Of a DNA stretch of 58,505 nucleotides, positions 3,775-53,234 are shown piece after piece (the first letter of the stretch is position 1; every line of letters starts with the position of its first letter). The position numbers and the translations under genes are program-made. The notes under the pieces were generated by a model. The model was not told where the DNA came from. It worked only from the letters and a program-made list of their open reading frames with translations, and searched no databases. This stretch comes from Parcubacteria group bacterium GW2011_GWD2_38_12 (GTDB lineage: Bacteria; Patescibacteriota; Minisyncoccia; GWC2-36-17). Location of the stretch: the NCBI GenBank assembly GCA_000992345.1, contig LBUA01000002.1:5557-64061 (forward strand). The letters are read 5' to 3'.

Positions 3775-3963
3775 GGGCTTGCCCTAATTCAACACATAAC
3801 TTTACGCTTGCTTCATTAATTTAAAAATCTTTATCTAATAACCTTTAATAATCCTATAAATAAATTACAAACAAAACGAGTGTAAAATTATGTGCTGTGT
3901 GCTCATTGTTGTAGCTAAATTTATTTTGCTACGCAATAGCTCCTCTCATAAATTTAGACAACA

Positions 3964-4524
3964 ATGGCACAGTCTTTTTTTGATAAATTAACAGGTTCTC
4001 TTAAGATTCAATCAGGCGAATTAAAGGCCACCCCGGCGCCGTTAGCTGCCTCGTCCCTGGATGCGCATCCCCAAGTTTCCATTCCTGAAGCGCCAGTTCA
4101 ACAAACACAACAAATTTCCAAGCCTAAAATTATAGAAGAAATTGCGGAAAAACCAAAAGTAAAAGAGGAGATATTGCTTAGCGAGCATAGTGAAGTTGAG
4201 GGGCAATTGACCGTTGACGTTTATCAGACGCCGACGGAAATTGTCATTAAATCAACAATTGCCGGAGTTACGATAGATGATTTGGATATCTCTATCACCA
4301 ATGATATGGTAACTATTCGCGGAGAAAGAAAAAAAGACGAAGAAGTGAATGCCGAAGATTATTTTCATCAGGAATGTTATTGGGGGACATTTTCAAGATC
4401 CGTAATCTTACCCCTTGAGGTTGATTCGGAAAATTCCGTCGCATCGTTTAAAAATGGCATTTTGACCATTAGATTGCCCAAAATAGAAAAAGTAAAAACT
4501 AAAAAAATAAAAATTGCCGGCTAA
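3964..4524 (+). CDS. Hsp20/alpha-crystallin family small heat-shock protein
   Basis: C-terminal alpha-crystallin domain (LTVDVYQTPTEIVIKSTIAGV...VTIRGERKKD...GILTIRLPK) preceded by a low-complexity N-terminus. Confidence 0.88.
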   Translation: MAQSFFDKLTGSLKIQSGELKATPAPLAASSLDAHPQVSIPEAPVQQTQQISKPKIIEEIAEKPKVKEEILLSEHSEVEGQLTVDVYQTPTEIVIKSTIAGVTIDDLDISITNDMVTIRGERKKDEEVNAEDYFHQECYWGTFSRSVILPLEVDSENSVASFKNGILTIRLPKIEKVKTKKIKIAG

Positions 4525-4605: not shown

Positions 4606-6285
4606 ATGATAAAACTTATTAAAAAAACACTTTTATATTTGGCAATCAGCTGCGTGTCCGTGGTTTTTTTGTCAGCTGTTTTTATTGGAGCAATTAACGC
4701 GCAAAAGATAGTTTTTGGCATAAAAATTGCCGGCATTGACGTTGGAGGCATGAATCCAAACGATGCCAGGGAGCGGCTAGAAAGGGCGGTTGACGATTTT
4801 TTGTCCCAAAAAATTATTTTAAAGATTGGAGAAAAAAGACACGAAACGACTTTTAATAATCTGGGCGTGAAATTGGATGCGGAAAAATCCGTTGAATCTG
4901 TTTTTGCAGTTGGACGGAAAGGCAATTTTTTGGTTAATTTTTATGAACAATTGGGAACCTTATTAAAAGGTAGAAATTTTGATATGATTGTTGATTTTGA
5001 CGATGAGAAGACGGAAAATTATTTGAAAAATTTTAAATCATACGAAAAAGATAGGCGCGACGCCTCGGTTTATTTTGATGATATGGCGATGGAATTTAAA
5101 GCGCAATATTCTAACAGCGGCAATATGATTGATCGCGGAAAATTGAAGAGAGATATTAAGGAGTTGGCGGGAAACCTAAATACCGGAGAAAGAATCGTGC
5201 CTTTTATAGCTGTTTATCCCGAGGCAACAGACGAAATGGCTGATGATGCCTTGGTTCGCGCCAATGATTTGTTAATCAAGCATCCGGGAATAAATCTTTT
5301 ATATAATAATAATTTTTGGCCGGTTGATAAAAAAACAATAGGAGGTTGGATTGGATTTGAGTTGTCTCGCGACAAAAATTTTTTGGATGTTCGTTTTGCC
5401 GAGGATAAAACATCGGAATATCTGACGCAAATTTCACAAAATATTAATCAAGAGCCAGTGGATGCTGTTTTAGTGCAAAAGGGAGGGAGGGTAGAGGCCT
5501 TTACGCTGTCTCGCGATGGCAGATATATCAACGTTAAAAATAGTTCCACAGAGATATTAGCGACTTTAGACGGATTGGGAAAATCAGTTGAATTGGAGAT
5601 GGACAAAGTGAAAGCGAAGATAGATACGAATGAAATTGAAAATTTGGGATTAACCTCGCTTCTTGCGACTGGGAGTAGTGATTTTTCCGGCAGTCCGTCA
5701 AATCGTGTCCATAATATAAAAATTGGCGCCGCAAAATTTAACGGCATAATGCTTGCTCCGAAGGAAGAATTTTCTTTTGTGAAAATCTTGGGAGAAGTGG
5801 GACCGGAGGAGGGTTATTTGCCCGAGCTCGTAATAAAGACTAATAAAACTGTTCCTGAATATGGAGGGGGGATTTGCCAAGTTTCCACTACTGCTTTTCG
5901 CGCGGCGATTTTGACTGGCCTTGAGATTCGCGAAAGATATCCGCACTCATTTCCAGTGAAATATTACAGTCCGCAGGGTTTTGATGCGGCGATTTATCCG
6001 CCGAGTCCGGATTTGAAATTTGTAAACGACACGCCAAGTAATCTTTTAATACAAACGAAAATAAAGGGCGCTAAATTATATTTTGAATTTTATGGCACAG
6101 ATGACGGCCGAAAAGTCGTCTTGACCGGTCCGGAAGAGTATGATAAAAACCCCGATGGTTCCATGAAGGCGAAATTGACGAGAGATATTTTTGATAAAGA
6201 TAATAATTTAATAAGGACGATTGTTTTCAGATCCAATTATAAATCGCCGGATTTATATCCGGTGGTAAGAAATCCACTTGAGTAG
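4606..6285 (+). CDS. VanW family protein (N-terminal membrane anchor)
   Basis: N-terminal TM helix. C-terminal VanW block PEYGGGICQVSTTAFRAAILTGLEIRERYPHSF. Confidence 0.85.
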   Translation: MIKLIKKTLLYLAISCVSVVFLSAVFIGAINAQKIVFGIKIAGIDVGGMNPNDARERLERAVDDFLSQKIILKIGEKRHETTFNNLGVKLDAEKSVESVFAVGRKGNFLVNFYEQLGTLLKGRNFDMIVDFDDEKTENYLKNFKSYEKDRRDASVYFDDMAMEFKAQYSNSGNMIDRGKLKRDIKELAGNLNTGERIVPFIAVYPEATDEMADDALVRANDLLIKHPGINLLYNNNFWPVDKKTIGGWIGFELSRDKNFLDVRFAEDKTSEYLTQISQNINQEPVDAVLVQKGGRVEAFTLSRDGRYINVKNSSTEILATLDGLGKSVELEMDKVKAKIDTNEIENLGLTSLLATGSSDFSGSPSNRVHNIKIGAAKFNGIMLAPKEEFSFVKILGEVGPEEGYLPELVIKTNKTVPEYGGGICQVSTTAFRAAILTGLEIRERYPHSFPVKYYSPQGFDAAIYPPSPDLKFVNDTPSNLLIQTKIKGAKLYFEFYGTDDGRKVVLTGPEEYDKNPDGSMKAKLTRDIFDKDNNLIRTIVFRSNYKSPDLYPVVRNPLE

Positions 6286-6558: not shown

Positions 6559-7776
6559 GTGAGAAAGCTGGGAAAGCGAAGCTACACAAAAAGAAATGAC
6601 TTCTTGAAGTGGCTTGTTGGCAAGGCGGATGATAAGGGGATAATAGATAATCCAGTTAAGACGGCTCTTACTGATGGTTTTTTGAGGGTAACAGCGGAAC
6701 GGTTTTTGAGGATATTAATTAATGAAAAATATATTGAACCGATCGAAAATGGATTACATGGCAGAGAAAGGGATATTTTGGCGGTTAAAGTAAAGTCTAA
6801 TTGTTTATCGAAAGTTTCTGTAGTAATAAGAAGGTCGATAGTGAATAATGGTTTCGTTTCCGTTGGTTCTGATGGCGGAGTGATAGACAAGACCGCACAT
6901 AAAGAAAATATAATATCAGACATTCCTTTATCTACTGACACAATAAAAGAAAAGTATGGCGTTGTTGTAGTTTTTGATTATGACAACACTTCATTGTCTA
7001 CTATTTCCAAGAGGGGGCACGAAATAGATGTTCCCACGATGTATGACGCTGTTATCCGTTATGCGAATGATATCGGTCGTATCTTGAAAAAAGAAGCATA
7101 CATCACAACCTCTACGGAAGACAAAGATTTTGTGATTAAGAATTTTTTTAGTCTAGATAAGACTCCCGTGATTATCGTGCCGCCCCAAAAGGATGCGGCA
7201 GATGAGAAGATGATTGAAAGCATTGAATTTTCTTTGATGATACCTGAGTTAAAAGCAGTTATTATCGTAAGTGATGATAATAAGGCCTTTGGTATAAGTG
7301 ACAATAAATCGGCAGAAGATTCTGTATGTGAAAAGATTAAAAAAGCGGGTTGCGAGGCGCATATTGTGACAACGGGCTTTATATCGCCAGTGCTGGCCAG
7401 TGCGTCTACTAAAGTGGTGAATTTGTTTAATTTAATAGAAAAGATAGAGTCGCCGAAAGAAGGAGCGGTCGCCAAAAACAGATTCATTAATATAGTGAAG
7501 AAAATGAGTCTTGGAGTTTGTCCGATGACGAAAGAGGAAAAGTTTGTAATGACTTGTTTTGAAAGGGTTCGCGAGATGACTTGTGAGCCTGGGAAATGGT
7601 TTAATTTTTATCGATTATATGAAGGAGTTTGGCTGAAAATGAACGAGCAAGAGAAAAATAGTTTTAGTCTTGATGATTGTCGCTTTGCGATAGAAAGCTT
7701 GATAACAATAGGTATGATAAGGAAGGGAATGTTTTCTTTCGGATCTAAAAATTCTGTGGGTTATTTTGTGAGATAA
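6559..7776 (+). CDS. NYN (LabA/DUF88-like) domain protein with N-terminal wHTH-like and C-terminal extra domain
   Basis: GTG start 5 nt after ggaggtgg. The central region shows the NYN pattern: VVVFDYDN, PPQKDAADEKMIESI, AVIIVSDDNKAF and KKAGCEAHIVTTG. This is a family-level call from motif recall only. Confidence 0.5.
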   Translation: MRKLGKRSYTKRNDFLKWLVGKADDKGIIDNPVKTALTDGFLRVTAERFLRILINEKYIEPIENGLHGRERDILAVKVKSNCLSKVSVVIRRSIVNNGFVSVGSDGGVIDKTAHKENIISDIPLSTDTIKEKYGVVVVFDYDNTSLSTISKRGHEIDVPTMYDAVIRYANDIGRILKKEAYITTSTEDKDFVIKNFFSLDKTPVIIVPPQKDAADEKMIESIEFSLMIPELKAVIIVSDDNKAFGISDNKSAEDSVCEKIKKAGCEAHIVTTGFISPVLASASTKVVNLFNLIEKIESPKEGAVAKNRFINIVKKMSLGVCPMTKEEKFVMTCFERVREMTCEPGKWFNFYRLYEGVWLKMNEQEKNSFSLDDCRFAIESLITIGMIRKGMFSFGSKNSVGYFVR

Positions 7777-47346: not shown

Positions 47347-48242
47347 TGGCGACCTTATACACAGAACAAGACAGGAATATTCACAAAACCTGGTTGCTTA
47401 TGACCGGGTTTTTAGTATTTATTATTGGGGCGACGTGGATTTTTTCCCAGGCATATGGCAATTCGGGAATTTTATATTTTGGCGTGGCATTTGCTTTTTT
47501 AATGAATTTTTTTAGTTATTGGTATTCGCATAAAATTGTTTTGGCGATGTCGGGCGCTCAGCCGATAAGTGAAAATGAAAATCGCGAATTGTATCGTCTA
47601 GTGGAGAATCTTTCCATCACCGCCGGTTTGCCGATGCCAAAGCTTTATATTATAAATGATCTTGCGCCCAATGCTTTTGCGACTGGACGTGATCCCAAAC
47701 ATGCGGTGATAGCCGTTACATCGGGACTTTTGAATCAGCTTGAAAGATCGGAAATTGAAGGTGTCTTGGCGCACGAATTGTCTCACATTGGGAATCGCGA
47801 TATACTTTTATCAACGATTATAGTTATGCTTGTTGGATTTGTGTCTTTGATTTCGGATTGGTTTTGGAGAATTTCTTTTTATGGTGGCAGAAATCGCGAC
47901 AATAAAGGAATCAAAGAATTAGTTTTGATTATTGCCATTGTTTTGGCGATATTTGCGCCAATTGTCGGATCCATAATACATCTTGCAATTTCCCGCAAAA
48001 GGGAATTTTTGGCTGACGCTTCGGGCGCGCTCTTGACACGTTATCCCGATGGTCTTGCCTCGGCTTTAGAAAGAATTTCTTCTTATCCCATATCTATTGC
48101 GCGCGCCAATCATGCCACAGCTCATCTTTATATTATAAGTCCATTTAAAGGGAAAGAAGCAGTTGGTTTTTTGGCTAAACTTTTTATGACGCATCCGCCT
48201 ATTGAAGAAAGAATAAAGATACTTCGGGGAATGAATATATAG
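47346..48242 (+). CDS. htpX: zinc metalloprotease HtpX (M48)
   Basis: HELSHIGNRD zinc motif, four TM segments and C-terminal THPPIEERI. Confidence 0.9.
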   Translation: MATLYTEQDRNIHKTWLLMTGFLVFIIGATWIFSQAYGNSGILYFGVAFAFLMNFFSYWYSHKIVLAMSGAQPISENENRELYRLVENLSITAGLPMPKLYIINDLAPNAFATGRDPKHAVIAVTSGLLNQLERSEIEGVLAHELSHIGNRDILLSTIIVMLVGFVSLISDWFWRISFYGGRNRDNKGIKELVLIIAIVLAIFAPIVGSIIHLAISRKREFLADASGALLTRYPDGLASALERISSYPISIARANHATAHLYIISPFKGKEAVGFLAKLFMTHPPIEERIKILRGMNI

Positions 48243-48271
48243 GGAATTTATTTTTTAATTTTAATTGTTAA

Positions 48272-48739
48272 ATGTCATTTTACGTTTTTATAAAATTTCT
48301 ACATATTTTGGGGCTTGTCCTTGGTTATGGCGGAGTGATATTTACGGCCCTACTCTCGGCAAAATCAATAAAAGATATAGGTCTTTTCAAGGCGACCGCA
48401 AAAATAACGCCCATCTTCTCGTTTTCAATATGGACGGGGTTGGCTTTGCTTTTTGTCAGCGGAGTCTGGCTTGAGAATTTTTGGTTTAGCCAAGAAGATA
48501 TTTTTTTTCTGGAAGTTAAAAAGATATTGGTAGTTTTTATTGTTTTTCACGGGATTTATGTTAATTTATATCTTACCAAAAAAATGAGAAAATTCGCGGA
48601 ATTAGATAATCCATTTGAAGCGCAGGGATTTAAAAAATTCAAAATTTTGGGCATAATTAGCACTTCCACGTCTTTAATTTTGTGGTCTAGCGCTGTTATT
48701 TTGGGGATTTTAATGAGTTCTGGATTGATGGGAAGATAA
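48272..48739 (+). CDS. polytopic membrane protein, hypothetical
   Basis: Four hydrophobic helices. No family recognised. Confidence 0.5.
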   Translation: MSFYVFIKFLHILGLVLGYGGVIFTALLSAKSIKDIGLFKATAKITPIFSFSIWTGLALLFVSGVWLENFWFSQEDIFFLEVKKILVVFIVFHGIYVNLYLTKKMRKFAELDNPFEAQGFKKFKILGIISTSTSLILWSSAVILGILMSSGLMGR

Positions 48740-48743
48740 AAAT

Positions 48744-49361
48744 ATGAAAGAAACCATTAAAAAATTAAAAAAAGAAATTAAGAATTTTCATCATTTGGTT
48801 GAAACTCAAAAAAAAGAAATTAACCGCCTCTCTTCTTTGGTTGATTATGATTTTTTGACGGGGCTTTATAATAGACAGGGATTTATCAGGGAAGCGGAAA
48901 AATTTTTTGATGAGTTAAGAGGAGAATTAAAGAGAAAAGAAAGAAGAAAGGTTTCTTTCAAGAATTTTTCGTTGATATTCGCCGACCTTGATAATTTGAA
49001 AGTGATTAATGATGAATATGGCCATAAGGCGGGAGATAGGGCGTTGAAAGCCACCACTCAAATTTTTAAGAATTCCGTCAGGCATTTTGATATTATCGGT
49101 CGCTGGGGAGGGGATGAATTTGTGATTGGATTAGTTGGTATCGGCGAAAAAGAAACATTGGAAGTGGCGAAAAAAATGAAGAAACGCCTGAAATCGGCAA
49201 AGATAAATGGTTTCGGATTAAGCGCCAGTTTTGGAATTATTACGGCAATTAACAAGGGGCGAGAAAATATTTTGAACTTATATGAATTGATTGAAAGGGC
49301 TGATATGGCGATGTATAAAGCTAAGAAAAGTAAGGGGAAGGGATTAATAATAGTTCATTAA
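48744..49361 (+). CDS. GGDEF-domain diguanylate cyclase
   Basis: Coiled-coil N-terminus, DFLTGLYNRQGF, active site GRWGGDEFVIGL and MYKAKKSKG. Confidence 0.85.
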   Translation: MKETIKKLKKEIKNFHHLVETQKKEINRLSSLVDYDFLTGLYNRQGFIREAEKFFDELRGELKRKERRKVSFKNFSLIFADLDNLKVINDEYGHKAGDRALKATTQIFKNSVRHFDIIGRWGGDEFVIGLVGIGEKETLEVAKKMKKRLKSAKINGFGLSASFGIITAINKGRENILNLYELIERADMAMYKAKKSKGKGLIIVH

Positions 49362-49365
49362 AGAA

Positions 49366-49692
49366 ATGTCCATTGAAAACGGTTTTGAACAATCAAATGA
49401 CGCCGAAATATTGTGTAATAATTTGCACAATCAAATAGCCGATGATCCTCACTGGTCGGATATTAATTGCGCCAAAATGGAAGCAGAAGATGCCGGGTTA
49501 ATCAGTAAATTTACAAGCGGAGAATTAAGCGACGACGATATTGACGAGAGGATGGATGAATTAAGAGAGGTTGATAGGAATAATCAGAAAGATTCGAGTT
49601 ATGTTTTGGCGGCTTTGCTGAAAAATAAATTAATCGCAAGTAAATATTGGGAAAAAAGAGGGGGGAGGGGAGAAAAAGAAGCTCGGTCATAA
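49366..49692 (+). CDS. hypothetical acidic protein (108 aa)
   Basis: ORF only. The start is tightly spaced after the GGDEF gene. Confidence 0.45.
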   Translation: MSIENGFEQSNDAEILCNNLHNQIADDPHWSDINCAKMEAEDAGLISKFTSGELSDDDIDERMDELREVDRNNQKDSSYVLAALLKNKLIASKYWEKRGGRGEKEARS

Positions 49693-49784
49693 ATTTTTAT
49701 GGAGGATTCGCCCTCCTAAGTTTTTATGATTAAAGGAGATTGCTATAAGTTTTGAGTTATTAGTTTTTAGTTTTTGGTTAATAT

Positions 49785-49871
49785 GGAGGGTTCGCATAGT
49801 GGTCGAGTGCGCATGCTTGGAAAGCATGTAAGGGAGAAATCCCTTCGAGAGTTCGAATCTCTCACCCTCCG
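49785..49871 (+). tRNA. tRNA-Ser(GGA), type II, CCA not encoded
   Basis: Acceptor ggagggt/accctcc, anticodon stem catgc/gcatg with loop uuGGAaa, long variable arm gggag-aaat-ccctt, T arm gagag-ttcgaat-ctctc, G73. Confidence 0.88.
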
Positions 49872-49912
49872 CAAAATCTGGTCGCGACTACGCTCGCGAT
49901 TTTGCGGTGTTT
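49871..49912. repeat. 42-bp perfect inverted repeat, left arm (starts at tRNA-Ser discriminator)
   Basis: gcaaaatctggtcgcgactacgctcgcgattttgcggtgttt. Its exact reverse complement is at 51358-51399. Confidence 0.95.
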
Positions 49913-49973
49913 GTTGTGAGCAAAATCGCCAAAACTCTTAATGTTGATATTGAGGAATTGATCAAATAATTTT

Positions 49974-51149
49974 ATGGAAAATTTTGAACCAAATTTTCAT
50001 CCAAAAATGGAAAAACCAAAAGAACCTGAGAAAAAAGAAATTAGTTTTGAAGTTTTAAAAACTCCAGAAATTTCTATTCGTGAAGAACGAGAAGCACAAT
50101 TACTTTCTTTTATCTTAAAAGCTAAAAATCCCGAATGGGGAACCGATGATACCCCATTAGCTGTTGATGTAAAAAATCATTTTTCAGAAAATCCATTAAG
50201 TTCTGAAGTTTCAGGATTTTTAGATGAAATTCGTGCCCTACAAAAAGGTGGCGTTGATGAAGAAGTTCTATACACACTTGCATTTACTTACGGACATCCA
50301 GAGAGAAATGAGGGAGCGTTTGAAATGATAACGAAACACAAATCGTATATTAAAAATCCGCAAGAGCTTCAACAAAAGCTTTTTCGCGTGCTTGAAATAT
50401 TTGGTCAATCTTTTTCTTCGTCGCCATTAGCAGAAAAAATGACCGTTGAAATTGAGAAAGACAAAAAAGCACGCGGGGAAATTTTAGACGAGACAAAAGC
50501 AAGAATTGAAAAACTGATTGCTTTTTTCAAACCTGATTCAAAAACAACTGAGATAAGGAAAATTTCCTTGATGCCGACTGACCCACTTGATAGAATAAAC
50601 ACAGGCAGTGCTTTTGTCTTTGGTGAAGAATTGGTTTTGAAAACTCACATAGACAACCCTGATAATTTGGAACATGAATTTTCGCACAGCATGATAAATC
50701 CTATTGTTGAAAAATTATCTCAACTATTGACGGACGAACAAAAAGAAAAAATATCCCAACTCGCCAATAAAAAACTAAAACAGGATTATGGCGAGGAATA
50801 TTTTAGCTTGCTGTGCGAAGAATTTATAAGAACCTACAATGATGTTTTTAAGAAGGGAGAAAAACCACAATCTTATGAAGATTTTGTGCAAAAAATTTCT
50901 GGTATTAGCGATGATCAATTCCAGAAATTTTTATCGCAAAGCGAAAGCTTAAAAGTAAGATGTGGTGAACTTGGAATAGTCACGGTTGAGGATTTCAAAA
51001 ATAAATCTCAAGAATATTTTGAACGATTTGAAAAAAATCAATTACGAGATTTGATTTTTGAACTTTATCAGGAATATTCAAATCGTCCAGATAAGGAAAC
51101 CGAAAATTTTGAAAGATTTGTTTTAGCAAAATTTTCGGTTAGAATATAA
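49974..51149 (+). CDS. hypothetical protein with HExxH motif (HEFSH)
   Basis: 391-aa ORF. The only recognisable feature is NLEHEFSHSMINP, a putative zinc-binding site. It lies inside the IR-bounded cassette. Confidence 0.55.
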   Translation: MENFEPNFHPKMEKPKEPEKKEISFEVLKTPEISIREEREAQLLSFILKAKNPEWGTDDTPLAVDVKNHFSENPLSSEVSGFLDEIRALQKGGVDEEVLYTLAFTYGHPERNEGAFEMITKHKSYIKNPQELQQKLFRVLEIFGQSFSSSPLAEKMTVEIEKDKKARGEILDETKARIEKLIAFFKPDSKTTEIRKISLMPTDPLDRINTGSAFVFGEELVLKTHIDNPDNLEHEFSHSMINPIVEKLSQLLTDEQKEKISQLANKKLKQDYGEEYFSLLCEEFIRTYNDVFKKGEKPQSYEDFVQKISGISDDQFQKFLSQSESLKVRCGELGIVTVEDFKNKSQEYFERFEKNQLRDLIFELYQEYSNRPDKETENFERFVLAKFSVRI

Positions 51150-51199
51150 GAGTGAATTTGAAATTAGCCGCCGAATTTCCGAAAACCCCCAGTCCGAAA

Positions 51200-51295
51200 C
51201 CCGCCCGCATTCCTCCCCAGACCCCTCCTGCGGGCGGGAATACAGCCGAGGCAGGGCGAATCCAAAACCCCAGACAAATTGTTTCGCCTTGCCTC
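51200..51295 (+). ncRNA. pair of GC-rich hairpins with CCCCAGA-containing loops (candidate RNA or protein-binding sites)
   Basis: Hairpin 1: cccgcccgca (51200-09) pairs with tgcgggcggg (51229-38), loop ttcctCCCCAGAcccctcc. Hairpin 2: gaggcagggcga (51248-59) pairs with tcgccttgcctc (51284-95), loop atccaaaaCCCCAGAcaaattgtt. Confidence 0.4.
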
Positions 51296-51357
51296 GTCCG
51301 CATTAGTATTTTTAATCATTTGGATTTTGCTCGAAATAGTTTCGAACTTCGTCCAAA

Positions 51358-51399
51358 AAACACCGCAAAATCGCGAGCGTAGTCGCGACCAGATTTTGC
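51358..51399. repeat. 42-bp perfect inverted repeat, right arm
   Basis: aaacaccgcaaaatcgcgagcgtagtcgcgaccagattttgc is the reverse complement of 49871-49912. Confidence 0.95.
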
Positions 51400-51457
51400 A
51401 TAGTGCAGAACAAGAAGTGAAGCGACTATGTTCTGCCTCCGCAAATTTGTAAATTTT

Positions 51458-52393
51458 ATGTATCCATCAGTAGCAATAATTATAGTTAATTGGAATAACG
51501 CCAAAGATACCGTTGATTGTATTGAAAGCATTAAAAAAATAATTTACCGGAATTATAAGATTTTTTTAATTGATAACGGATCTGGTGATGGTTCTTTTGT
51601 AAAATTTCAGTCTCTATATGCCGGTATAAGCGGAATTGAGATCCTAAGATTAAATGATAATTTGGGATTTTCCGGTGGCAATAATATTGGTATTAAAAAA
51701 GCGCTGGATGAAAAATTTGATTATGTGTTGCTTTTAAATAATGACACGACAGTAGAGCCGAATTTTTTGGATGAATTGATAAAAATAGGAGAGAGTGACG
51801 AAAAAATCGGCGTCGTCGGTCCGAAAATATATTTTCATCCTGATTTTGATGATTTATTAAAAGCCGATCGTATATGGTATGGCGGCGGAGATTTCACATG
51901 GCTTGGCGGAGGCAGACATTTGCAATATGAAGAGATAGACAAAAATCCAAGCGAGACGAACCCGAGAGAAACAAAATATATGACTGGTTGCGCTTTTTTA
52001 GTTAAGTCGGAAGTGTTGAAAAGGGTTGGATTAATGCCGGAAGAATTTTTTCTTTATTATGAAGATACGGATTGGAGTTTATCCATTAGGAAAGCGGGTT
52101 ATAAAATGATATATGCTCCAGCATCTAAAATTTATCATAAAGTTTCTCGGACAACTGCAACGCTAGGAAATCCAAAAATTCATTATTATCACATTCGCAA
52201 TGCCTTGTTACTTTCCAAAAGACAGGCGCCTAAAATTATTTTGGCAGGTATTTATATTTGGAGCGTGATGCATTATTTAAAACAAATTATTAAATTGGCA
52301 ATTTTACCTTCTAAAAGGGAAACCTCCAAAATGATAATGCGCGGAATTGAGGATTTTTGGGAAGGTAAATTCGGGGAATATGAATCAAAATAA
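51458..52393 (+). CDS. family 2 glycosyltransferase
   Basis: VAIIIVNWNN...IDNGSGDGS...FSGGNN...LLLNNDT and a DxD-type motif YYEDTDW. The start is set at MYPSVAIII. Confidence 0.85.
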   Translation: MYPSVAIIIVNWNNAKDTVDCIESIKKIIYRNYKIFLIDNGSGDGSFVKFQSLYAGISGIEILRLNDNLGFSGGNNIGIKKALDEKFDYVLLLNNDTTVEPNFLDELIKIGESDEKIGVVGPKIYFHPDFDDLLKADRIWYGGGDFTWLGGGRHLQYEEIDKNPSETNPRETKYMTGCAFLVKSEVLKRVGLMPEEFFLYYEDTDWSLSIRKAGYKMIYAPASKIYHKVSRTTATLGNPKIHYYHIRNALLLSKRQAPKIILAGIYIWSVMHYLKQIIKLAILPSKRETSKMIMRGIEDFWEGKFGEYESK

Positions 52394-53234
52394 TATAAAA
52401 CTTAGCATAATAATTCCTCATTATCGGACGCCGGAAGTCTTGACGCTGTGCCTAGACGCTATCTTGAAAGATGTAAAAAATATTTCTTATGAAATTATTG
52501 TTTCTGATGGAGAAACTGATAGCGGGATTTTAGATGAATTTAAAAATAAATATCCAGGAATCATATTTATTGAAAATAAAAAAAATGTCGGGTTTGCCAG
52601 GCTCGCTAATGCCGGTATTGGCAGGGCAAAGGGAGAATATATTTTTGAAATAAACGCGGATATTATTTTTACGAATGGAAAGGATATCCTGGATTTGATT
52701 GAATATCTTGAAAAAAATGATAATGTTGGCATTGTGGCGCCGCGCCTTTTTAATCCCGATGGCTCTGTCCAGCAGACATATTTCAGGAATTACACATTGC
52801 CGACTATTTTAGCCAGGAGAACTTTTTTGGGGAAAACCCGGCTGGGAAAAAAGATATTGGATAAATTTATGTATAAAGATGTGAATATGAGCGGTTCTTT
52901 TGAGCCGGATTGGGTTTTGGGCGCCGCCATGATGATGGCCAGCAAAAGATTTGCCAAGATAGGCGGAAAATTTGATGAAAGATTTTTTATGTATTTTGAG
53001 GATGCGGATTTGTGCAGAAGATTCAAAATAGCGGGATTCAAAATAATATATTTTCCTTTCACAAGTTTTGTCCATAAACATGCCAGAGCGTCGGATAGGG
53101 GCAAGGGGATTTTTGATATTTTTACGAATAATTTAACGCGCATTCATATTGCAAGTTATTTGAATTATTTGATTAAATGGCACATTGAAATTCCTTTGAA
53201 AATGATATATAGTAATTTCAAAAATAAAATGTGA
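52380..53234 (+). CDS. family 2 glycosyltransferase
   Basis: LSIIIPHYR...VSDGETDSG...GFARLANAG...NADI...YFEDADLC. It overlaps the upstream gene by 14 nt. Confidence 0.85.
   Translation: MNQNNIKLSIIIPHYRTPEVLTLCLDAILKDVKNISYEIIVSDGETDSGILDEFKNKYPGIIFIENKKNVGFARLANAGIGRAKGEYIFEINADIIFTNGKDILDLIEYLEKNDNVGIVAPRLFNPDGSVQQTYFRNYTLPTILARRTFLGKTRLGKKILDKFMYKDVNMSGSFEPDWVLGAAMMMASKRFAKIGGKFDERFFMYFEDADLCRRFKIAGFKIIYFPFTSFVHKHARASDRGKGIFDIFTNNLTRIHIASYLNYLIKWHIEIPLKMIYSNFKNKM

Follow-up and report, generated by a model that had tools for sequence, protein, structure and literature searches.

A 1.5-kb cassette bounded by inverted repeats lies directly after a tRNA-Ser(GGA) gene in the window, the 58.5-kb stretch of Parcubacteria group bacterium GW2011_GWD2_38_12 DNA analysed here, and is compared below with relative loci and contigs (designated by L numbers), several of which carry a complete integrative element at such a gene. 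The tRNA gene, taken as the integration target, occupies 49785-49871 (end at 49871/2) on the plus strand (ARAGORN; Rfam tRNA, 56.2 bits), and the left arm of the repeat begins at its discriminator G. The repeat is the 42-mer GCAAAATCTGGTCGCGACTACGCTCGCGATTTTGCGGTGTTT at 49871-49912 on the plus strand, with its exact reverse complement at 51358-51399; a repeat search extends the pair to 46 nt at 98% identity, with one mismatch (49871-49916, plus strand, and 51354-51399, minus strand). No further copy of the 42-mer occurs in the window with up to three mismatches allowed, and none of 100 shuffles gave two matches to it. The arms enclose an intact open reading frame (ORF) for a 391-aa protein that carries the sequence HEFSH (49974-51149, plus strand), and a region of 64% GC (51200-51299, vs about 33% around it) that folds better than shuffled sequence (z = -4.2 on the plus strand and -3.0 on the minus strand). 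The initial annotation had recognized the perfect repeats starting at the tRNA discriminator, the 391-aa ORF and the structured GC-rich region, and all three stand, the last as part of a longer repeat unit.

As ends of the cassette, the two arms are unequal. The right one continues inwards as a complete 202-nt unit, G' (51165-51366, minus strand), which contains the GC-rich structured region and is 96% identical over 188 nt to the G arm of L068, an element with unrelated cargo. Its left partner, G, is cut to the outer 13 nt (GCGGTGTTTGTTG; 49904-49916, plus strand), recognized by alignment with the G arms of L001, L068 and others, and the ~190 nt beyond these are deleted; the window holds a single G copy in all. 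The outer 32-33 nt of each arm form a palindromic hairpin distinct from G, interpreted as a homologue of the S-type repeats (below) between which intact relatives carry the recombinase gene. On the left, this stub reads CAAAATCTGG-TCGCGA-CTACGC-TCGCGA-TTTT (49872-49903, plus strand), and the left arm as a whole is a composite of S-type stub and G tip. A second S-type stub lies outside G' (51367-51399, minus strand), in the order also found in L164, where S' is full-length, and in L032. An exact 35-mer of the arm has no match in 185,579 species genomes, and the stub is lineage-specific. The inserted DNA ends on the right at 51399/51400, and the host flank runs from there to 51457, before the first glycosyltransferase gene (weak local alignment to L165).

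Just inside the left arm lies the remnant of an XRE-family helix-turn-helix (HTH) gene, reduced to its last ~20 codons (VFVVSKIAKTLNVDIEELIK) and the stop (49907-49969, plus strand). In tblastn, positions 49904-49966 match residues 47-67 of the 67-aa XRE HTH protein of L001 at 90% identity; this protein is complete in L001, L003 and L006, and in full length it matches Pfam HTH_3 at 2.8e-16. The remnant has neither start codon nor promoter. Relative to L001, ~410 bp are absent from the window, and the left junction reads GGTGTTTGTTG/TGAGCAAAATC. Because the sequence TTTGTTG is present both at the tip of G (GGTGTTTGTTGG) and in the part of XRE that encodes VFVV (GTTTTTGTTGTG), the loss is attributed to a ~410-bp microhomology deletion that took most of G, the promoter and 46 XRE codons, with its junction at 49909-49915 (plus strand; window 49900-49970 compared with L001 3510-3996, L003, L006 and L164). 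The initial annotation had read the same frame as an XRE C-terminus truncated by the rearrangement that made the arm, and it was right on both counts. The XRE gene is cut at other points elsewhere, at residue 37 in L007 and L008 and after the first ~20 residues in L164. The stretch from the tRNA to the start of the 391-aa gene has no convincing promoter, so that this gene now probably relies on read-through or cryptic promoters.

The cassette had also been described as free of any transposase or recombinase. This holds for serine recombinases, of which no homologue was found by tblastn with three subtypes anywhere in the 58.5-kb window; tyrosine recombinases were not searched for.

The relatives provide the complete form. 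It runs from tRNA-Ser through S', a large serine recombinase (LSR) gene and S to G, an XRE gene, variable cargo and G'. S' and S are inverted repeats of ~120 bp around the recombinase gene, and G and G' are GC-rich, hairpin-bearing inverted repeats of ~200 bp around the cargo module. In this module an XRE-family regulator gene, with a promoter of its own, precedes one to five cargo genes that vary between elements. The whole element measures 3.5-5.5 kb and has no replication, excisionase or packaging genes. In L068, on contig Ga0209717_1004082, where the order was established base by base, tRNA-Ser(GGA) (2334-2423) is followed by S' (2424-2540), the recombinase gene on the minus strand (ending at 3917), S (3934-4053), G (4055-4259), XRE and cargo between G and G', G' (5730-5934) and then host flank; S' and S are perfect inverted repeats, and the tRNA junction reads ...CTTCCGCCA/AAATTG. 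In L001, L003 and L006 the 391-aa gene itself is preceded by the full XRE gene, between repeats of 202-205 bp that are 99.5-100% identical.

The recombinase, of ~450 aa and oriented divergently on the XRE side, carries Resolvase, Recombinase and Zn_ribbon_recom domains and matches the PHROG 'integrase' family at 1.8e-77, with sub-threshold NCBIfam hits to XisF, CcrB and CcrA; from this domain content it is classed as an LSR. It is present in L068, L073, L076, L115, L045 and other intact relatives, split into two ORFs in L001 and truncated in L130. The gene and the adjoining non-coding DNA keep 86-92% nucleotide identity across elements with unrelated cargo. In eight loci with differing neighbours, the recombinase end adjoins tRNA-Ser genes with the anticodons GGA, TGA, GCT and CGA, and therefore one backbone entered different tRNA-Ser genes.

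The initial annotation had proposed a comparison of the tRNA-Ser locus in relatives, and this comparison did yield an empty site. A lineage-specific gene for a 108-aa protein lies just upstream of the window tRNA. The relative L178 encodes a 108-aa protein of 73% identity, and its tRNA-Ser(GGA) gives way to unrelated, AT-rich DNA and an epimerase gene on the minus strand; neither S nor G sequence occurs there. Homology between window and L178 stops exactly at the tRNA 3' end, ...CCGC (alignment end CCTCCGC/CCTTCCGC), and by this alignment L178 represents the empty version of the site. Occupied sites (eight loci) and an empty one are thus both at hand, as for LSR islands. Relatives found through the GT2 gene gave no empty site, their neighbourhoods being rearranged (L165, L166, L167); L165 and L167 have other genes upstream of GT2. 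In L166 (1-810; GT2 79% identical), a GGDEF gene directly adjoins the GT2 genes, the 108-aa gene, tRNA and cassette are absent between them, and at the start of the contig, immediately upstream of GGDEF, there is a G' end (…CAAAAAACACCGCCA). In L179 (1628-1710; 108-aa protein 70% identical), the short-read contig ends inside the 3' part of tRNA-Ser(GGA), which may reflect, in the sample concerned, polymorphic or repeated sequence starting at the tRNA end.

The probable attachment sites can be read from the junctions. The G' end, ...CAAACACCGC(CA), resembles the tRNA 3' end, and CCGC(CA) is common to the junctions of tRNA with S', of G' with the flank and, in L164, of G' with S'. This last junction was read directly in L164 and also in L032, inside longer contigs, and the internal S-G junction is its exact reverse complement. 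We infer that the G'-S' junction (predicted as …CAAACACCGCCAAAATTGAAAATCGG…) would be the attP of an excised circle and the tRNA-Ser 3' end the attB, with crossover within CCGC(CA); the internal S-G junction would then be an inverted copy of the presumed attP. A 10-nt direct repeat, CCTCCGCAAA, flanks the window cassette at 49866-49875 and 51436-51445, the right copy repeating the tRNA end, and was considered as a second att site. It was discarded in that role: the right copy has a weak match (20 of 29 positions) upstream of the L165 GT2 ortholog, which suggests that it probably comes from the ribosome-binding region of a minus-strand NUDIX gene that relatives have at this place. Further traces surround such sites elsewhere. 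Past tRNA-Ser(TGA) in L008 (128-330) and L153 (3775-3990), inverted (GAGAGGGTGGGATTCGAAAGCCAC) and direct (GACCGAATCCCACCCTCTCCGCCA) copies of the tRNA 3' end precede a truncated XRE gene, which suggests repeated recombination events at the site. In L115 (7464-10828) and L045 (4171-4341), more XRE genes directly follow G', and L115 then has a DNA methylase operon and a recombinase fragment; this arrangement suggests tandem accretion of elements at one tRNA-Ser hotspot.

The cassette is best explained, with a probability of roughly 0.78, as the degenerate and immobilised remnant of a two-module Patescibacteria integrative element that inserts at tRNA-Ser 3' ends. The scar of a tRNA-targeted integration, one of the options raised by the initial annotation, agrees with the relatives, which carry the LSR gene between tRNA-Ser and the cassette, and with the empty site of L178. 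The window retains one full G' arm, the 46-bp arms and a single cargo gene, for the 391-aa HExxH protein, which has become domesticated. The decay probably followed four steps. First, the element would have entered directly after ...CCTCCGC of tRNA-Ser(GGA). Second, the recombinase gene would have been lost through collapse of its flanking inverted repeats, leaving the 32-nt palindrome. The stub is accordingly interpreted as S' and S folded onto each other, with the gene between them gone; it resembles, by eye and with no tool score, the S' hairpin CAAAAATATGGTCGGCACGAAGTGCCG of L001 and L122 and the S'/S pair of L068, and a collapse of equivalent kind reduced G' and G to a single hairpin between the head-to-head cassettes of L074. 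Third, the deletion at TTTGTTG would have removed the ~410 bp. Fourth, after the collapse, stub and G tip may have been made identical on both sides by fold-back copying or gene conversion, and copying of the outer flank of one arm onto the other is the likeliest cause of the second stub. The locus itself is a case of ordinary decay, a fossil. The 42/42 identity of the arms had been taken as a possible sign of ongoing conversion, which is not needed: most intact elements already have arms of 99-100% identity, and the window's arms inherited their match from such arms.

Several points weigh against this explanation. The likeness between stub and S is short and judged by eye. An S-type stub is present on both sides of the window cassette, which the canonical order does not predict and which calls for an extra event. 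The downstream neighbours of the tRNA differ, L178 having epimerase and NUDIX genes where the window has the cassette, and replacement may have taken place instead of simple insertion. The crossover is bracketed no more narrowly than to the shared CCGC(CA). The G arms may act as DNA site, terminator or RNA. Finally, no recombinase, excised circle or second orientation was seen at the window locus, where mobility is a matter of reconstructed history.

A more advanced case may be L025 (3896-4000), in which only ATTTTGCGGTG is left between tRNA-Ser(GGA) and a gene 73% identical to the one in the window. This gene lies ~100 nt past the tRNA, with a trace of the S-G junction (…CCAAAATCCCTTTATTTTGCGGTGCATTTTT…) and no G' downstream, and judged from these remains L025 would be a later stage of the same decay.

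The G arms are the most conspicuous part of the family. From its outer to its inner end, G' consists of a tip (GCGGTGTTT), a small hairpin (TCGAAACTATTTCGA), an AT-rich spacer, hairpin 2, hairpin 1 and TTCGG repeats. The GC-rich hairpin 1 is invariant (CCCGCCCGCA...TGCGGGCGGG, with a 19-nt loop). The invariant core ATGMGGRCGGGTTTCGRACTGG was found in at least 118 metagenome stretches; it has no match in the viral contigs of IMG/VR, and G is not an obvious phage feature. Among the matches listed, 30 loci hold a plus and a minus copy of G 1.3-3.4 kb apart. Within an element the arms are 93-100% identical (99-100% in seven of eight complete elements), whereas between elements identity averages 80% (range 65%-96%); the arms therefore undergo concerted evolution. 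The sole complete element with differing arms is L076 (4149-4346 vs 6670-6867; 93%), whose right arm has the hairpin-2 variant of another subtype. It looks chimeric, as expected after cassette exchange with a different element.

Could the ~200-nt unit be a structured non-coding RNA (ncRNA), such as a cis-regulatory 3' untranslated region, a terminator or a small RNA, with the inverted repeat a by-product of there being two copies? The unit is a GC-rich island in an AT-rich genome, it folds significantly better than shuffles, and a U-rich tract follows hairpin 2 on the cargo-sense strand. Its nucleotide identity (90-93%) exceeds the amino-acid identity of the adjacent cargo protein (62-64%). 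Over 102 distinct copies, hairpin 2 has compensatory changes in at least five pairs (in one example GC 66, AU 12, UA 7 and CG 2), while hairpin 1, its loop and the adjacent TTCGG repeats are nearly invariant. Such covariation is equally expected for a DNA cruciform or for structures in single-stranded DNA, and the counts of G-U and A-C pairs (28 vs 16) give no decisive strand signal. Moreover, the two orientations are near-identical within each element, which an RNA read from a single strand would not require, and Rfam 15 gave no match at E <= 1 in window 48000-53000 or L068 2300-6000 apart from the tRNA, to which a weak sX4 match is also due. An ncRNA as the whole explanation is therefore unlikely, and it is compatible with the degenerate-element reading, not exclusive of it.

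The module between the G arms varies widely. Among the matches listed, 26 of the 30 loci with paired G hold an XRE homologue beside one arm, then one to five genes, and their cargo falls into 58 unrelated clusters. Defence-type cargo recognized by Pfam comprises GmrSD with HNH, Mrr, an N6/N4 methylase beside a probable restriction enzyme, SMODS and ThsB-TIR; further cargo comprises HNH, NYN, Exo_endo_phos, HIT, DNA_alkylation, a PfkB kinase, a methyltransferase and an FAD oxidoreductase. A single XRE type (at least 85% identity) is joined to up to seven different cargos. The cargo is tightly trimmed, with its first ATG 2-12 nt past the XRE stop and its last stop 0-20 nt before the inner end of G'.

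Cargo and recombinase modules each occur in both orientations across relatives. The recombinase is divergent from XRE in most loci and co-directional with it in L102 and L065, and the 3' end of the cargo lies beside the recombinase-side arm in L051 and L103, an arrangement that the G'-S' order of L164 and L032 also fits. In L074 (1532-7527) two XRE-cargo cassettes stand head to head beside one recombinase, and the intervening G'/G is a single hairpin 1 (…CCGAAACCCGCCCGCAGGAGGGGTCTGGGGAGGAATGCGGGCGGGTTTCGG…); therefore, cassettes form arrays. L102 (3755-9526) has three inverted-repeat pairs in a chain (3755-3857/4724-4826, 4824-4922/6317-6415 and 6702-6810/9418-9526) and, in inverted orientation, a second, partial copy of the recombinase gene; no tRNA gene is found within 9.5 kb, and the layout is shufflon-like.

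These orientations bear on the proposal of the initial annotation that the cassette is an invertible, phase-variable segment. The 46-bp arms would then be recombination sites of an active switch, and flipping would alter expression of the 391-aa gene or of the downstream glycosyltransferases. The segment is indeed bounded by near-perfect inverted repeats, each arm holds an inward-facing terminator-like hairpin, and in relatives a serine recombinase adjoins the repeats, with modules in both orientations (states A, B and C; the G'-S' order of L164 and L032; the L102 chain). At the window locus the evidence points the other way. Thirteen assemblies of the window's population, from different samples, were available (NCBI GCA_000992485.1, ENA and JGI records): L161-L163 are 99.0-99.9% identical to the window over the cassette, and L168-L177 have an identical 108-aa protein and the same gene order. 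Twelve of the 13 carry both 42-bp arms intact and all twelve show a single orientation, in consensus assemblies from which a rare minority orientation could escape; the thirteenth (L163) ends before the right arm. No polymorphic inversion was seen among contigs with common flanks, several of these comparisons being uninformative with such symmetric repeats. The many ~1.5-kb contigs were rejected as evidence of inversion, since contigs are expected to end at any perfect repeat that exceeds the assembly k-mer in length. There is also the lack of a serine recombinase nearby, already described; the enzyme of the relatives is of integrase type (three LSR domains, PHROG integrase) and not a ~190-aa invertase; and in intact elements the promoter lies inside the segment, so that flipping would not switch it. 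An active switch is thus very unlikely. Inversion did occur in evolutionary time, as the module is inverted relative to the recombinase in relatives, but there is no sign that it is current at this locus. The initial annotation had itself set a single orientation and the lack of other repeat copies against active inversion or mobility, and this is largely what the locus presents.

The least probable option, and a highly improbable one, is an insertion sequence (IS) or miniature inverted-repeat transposable element (MITE) that carries cargo but no transposase and is moved in trans by a transposase, of DDE or other type, that recognizes its terminal repeats; a non-autonomous element of this sort had also been proposed by the initial annotation. 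The repeats, with their conserved tip TGGCGGTGTTTG, do bound many different cargo modules that lack a recombinase of their own, and many contigs end in them, but such breaks are expected without mobility at perfect repeats longer than the k-mer, no target-site duplication is found at the window ends or in the flanks of nine complete elements, G has no second copy in the window, the exact 35-mer has no match in the species genomes, complete elements with a fully assembled recombinase-side flank adjoin tRNA-Ser (eight loci) and not scattered sites, and the only linked enzyme is a serine integrase.

For the intact elements, the recombinase most likely integrates the unit at tRNA-Ser, moving the whole element. 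The identical, opposed G arms most likely serve as recombination-prone homology or docking arms, between which the XRE-cargo segment would be inverted or replaced, in either orientation. They may also insulate the module as transcriptional terminators, with a U-rich tract after hairpin 2 on the outward strand. RecA-type exchange between perfect repeats of 120-200 bp would be enough to produce inversions and homogenised arms. Inversion catalysed by the recombinase was considered for the orientation variants but not retained, since the pairings made by known LSRs are limited to attP with attB and attL with attR, and exclude attP with attL or attR; RecA-type recombination is the simpler account. 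It would account neither for the retention of an inverted spare attP nor for the precise loading of cargo.

A broader and tentative reading, which we consider rather doubtful, is that the family forms a hitherto undescribed cassette platform of candidate phyla radiation (CPR) bacteria. It would place a serine integrase at tRNA-Ser beside a 'dock' of two inverted 200-nt structured copies, between which XRE and exchangeable, closely trimmed cargo operons (defence and metabolic) are loaded either way. The paired inverted copies of the attP region would have one of two roles. They could provide symmetric homology arms that capture DNA in either orientation, as might happen following natural transformation. 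In the other scenario, modelled on CTX-phi and on the attC sites of integrons, single-stranded DNA entering the cell would be folded by them so as to form a double-stranded attachment site.

The 391-aa cargo protein belongs to a family of 260 homologues, all from CPR-type (Patescibacteria-type) assemblies and many on contigs of ~1.5 kb. The motifs HEFxH and LCEEFIRTY are conserved, and H234, E235, H238, E282 and E283 are invariant. In Pfam the protein has only a borderline match to DUF4932 (29.7 bits vs a cutoff of 28.7), and PHROGs, NCBIfam and PADLOC gave none. A sequence-profile search of the PDB returned nothing below E = 0.37. The AlphaFold 2 (AF2) model has a pLDDT (predicted local distance difference test) of 86, and a fold search with it gave no significant match, the best being 4l7a, a putative Zn metallopeptidase (E = 0.67). 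From its motifs the protein is putatively zinc-metallopeptidase-like. It matches no M78/ImmA or CapP family model and is not demonstrably a peptidase of either type. Distant homologues without G repeats (in L001-L042) often lie less than 300 bp from tRNA genes, far above the expectation from tRNA density, and the tRNAs concerned are Leu, Ala, Phe, Val, Ile, Arg, Gly and Ser-GCT. Elements that target tRNA genes may have carried this gene family as cargo and so spread it.

The Patescibacteria, or CPR, make up a large share of bacterial diversity, have tiny genomes and are almost entirely uncultured, and their mobile elements and routes of gene flow are poorly described. A full-text literature search returned no description of such elements in CPR bacteria. 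The family is abundant in groundwater and sediment metagenomes and carries restriction-modification, Mrr, GmrSD, SMODS, ThsB-TIR and metabolic genes; it may be a main vehicle of the accessory genome and of phage defence in CPR. Repeat-wrapped modules with an internal, inverted spare attP are an unusual design for a serine-integrase element and raise the testable question of how cargo is loaded precisely, and the integrase with its tRNA-Ser site could serve as a compact genetic tool for these bacteria. For genome annotation, the window cassette should be read as a dead island with one domesticated gene. The family that this fossil exposes is worth following up.

Among known systems, the yeast 2-micron circle (FLP/FRT) is similar in geometry only: the excised circle proposed here would contain two inverted S+G units of ~320 bp separating recombinase and cargo segments, and both relative orientations of the segments are seen. 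The recombinase family is a different one, there is no replication function, and no circular form was seen. A second likeness is to the pairs of XRE repressor and HExxH metallopeptidase, ImmR/ImmA (ICEBs1) and CapH/CapP (CBASS): in L001, L003 and L006 a mobile element carries an XRE gene immediately before the gene for an HExxH protein, and the element XRE matches the PADLOC capH and control-protein models. Unlike these pairs, the 391-aa protein lacks an M78/ImmA match, and because the same XRE type precedes many unrelated cargos, the XRE gene is part of the platform and has no dedicated partner.

Integron cassettes share the diverse cargo tightly bounded by conserved structured sequences beside a recombinase, and arrays occur (L074). 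Here, however, the linked enzyme is a serine recombinase, and neither a tyrosine integron integrase nor attI or attC is present; every cassette brings a regulator and a promoter of its own and stands between two inverted copies of the same 200-nt unit. Serine-invertase switches use sites of ~26 bp, an invertase of ~190 aa and an enhancer, and switch promoters or gene 3' ends. As in these switches (Hin/hix, Gin/gix, Cin, Pin; PinQ, PMC12529663), inverted repeats bound a gene segment, a recombinase is adjacent in relatives and both orientations occur among relatives. The element differs in its 200-bp arms, its integrase-type enzyme, its internal promoter and the one orientation of the 12 window assemblies. 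The defining features of Hin/Gin-type switches, IS/MITE elements and integrons were each looked for and are absent, and the element is none of these.

The closest kind are LSR islands, which include phage serine integrases, SCCmec/CcrAB, the fdxN element/XisF and LSR-using tycheposons. Tycheposons are tRNA-targeting, cargo-carrying 'plug-in' elements of a streamlined-genome bacterium; they mostly use tyrosine recombinases and carry replication modules, with LSR in the minority (bioRxiv 10.1101/2020.12.28.424599). The window copy itself no longer encodes the LSR that marks such islands. Unlike LSR islands, the intact elements have the recombinase gene and the cargo each wrapped in long (120 and 200 bp), near-perfect inverted repeats, contain an inverted copy of the presumed attP, lack replication, excisionase and packaging genes and are only 3.5-5.5 kb long. 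They share with them a single LSR with Resolvase, Recombinase and Zn-ribbon domains, site-specific residence at the 3' end of a conserved gene and a small size with variable cargo, and they apparently constitute an undescribed family of serine-recombinase integrative elements with swappable cargo.

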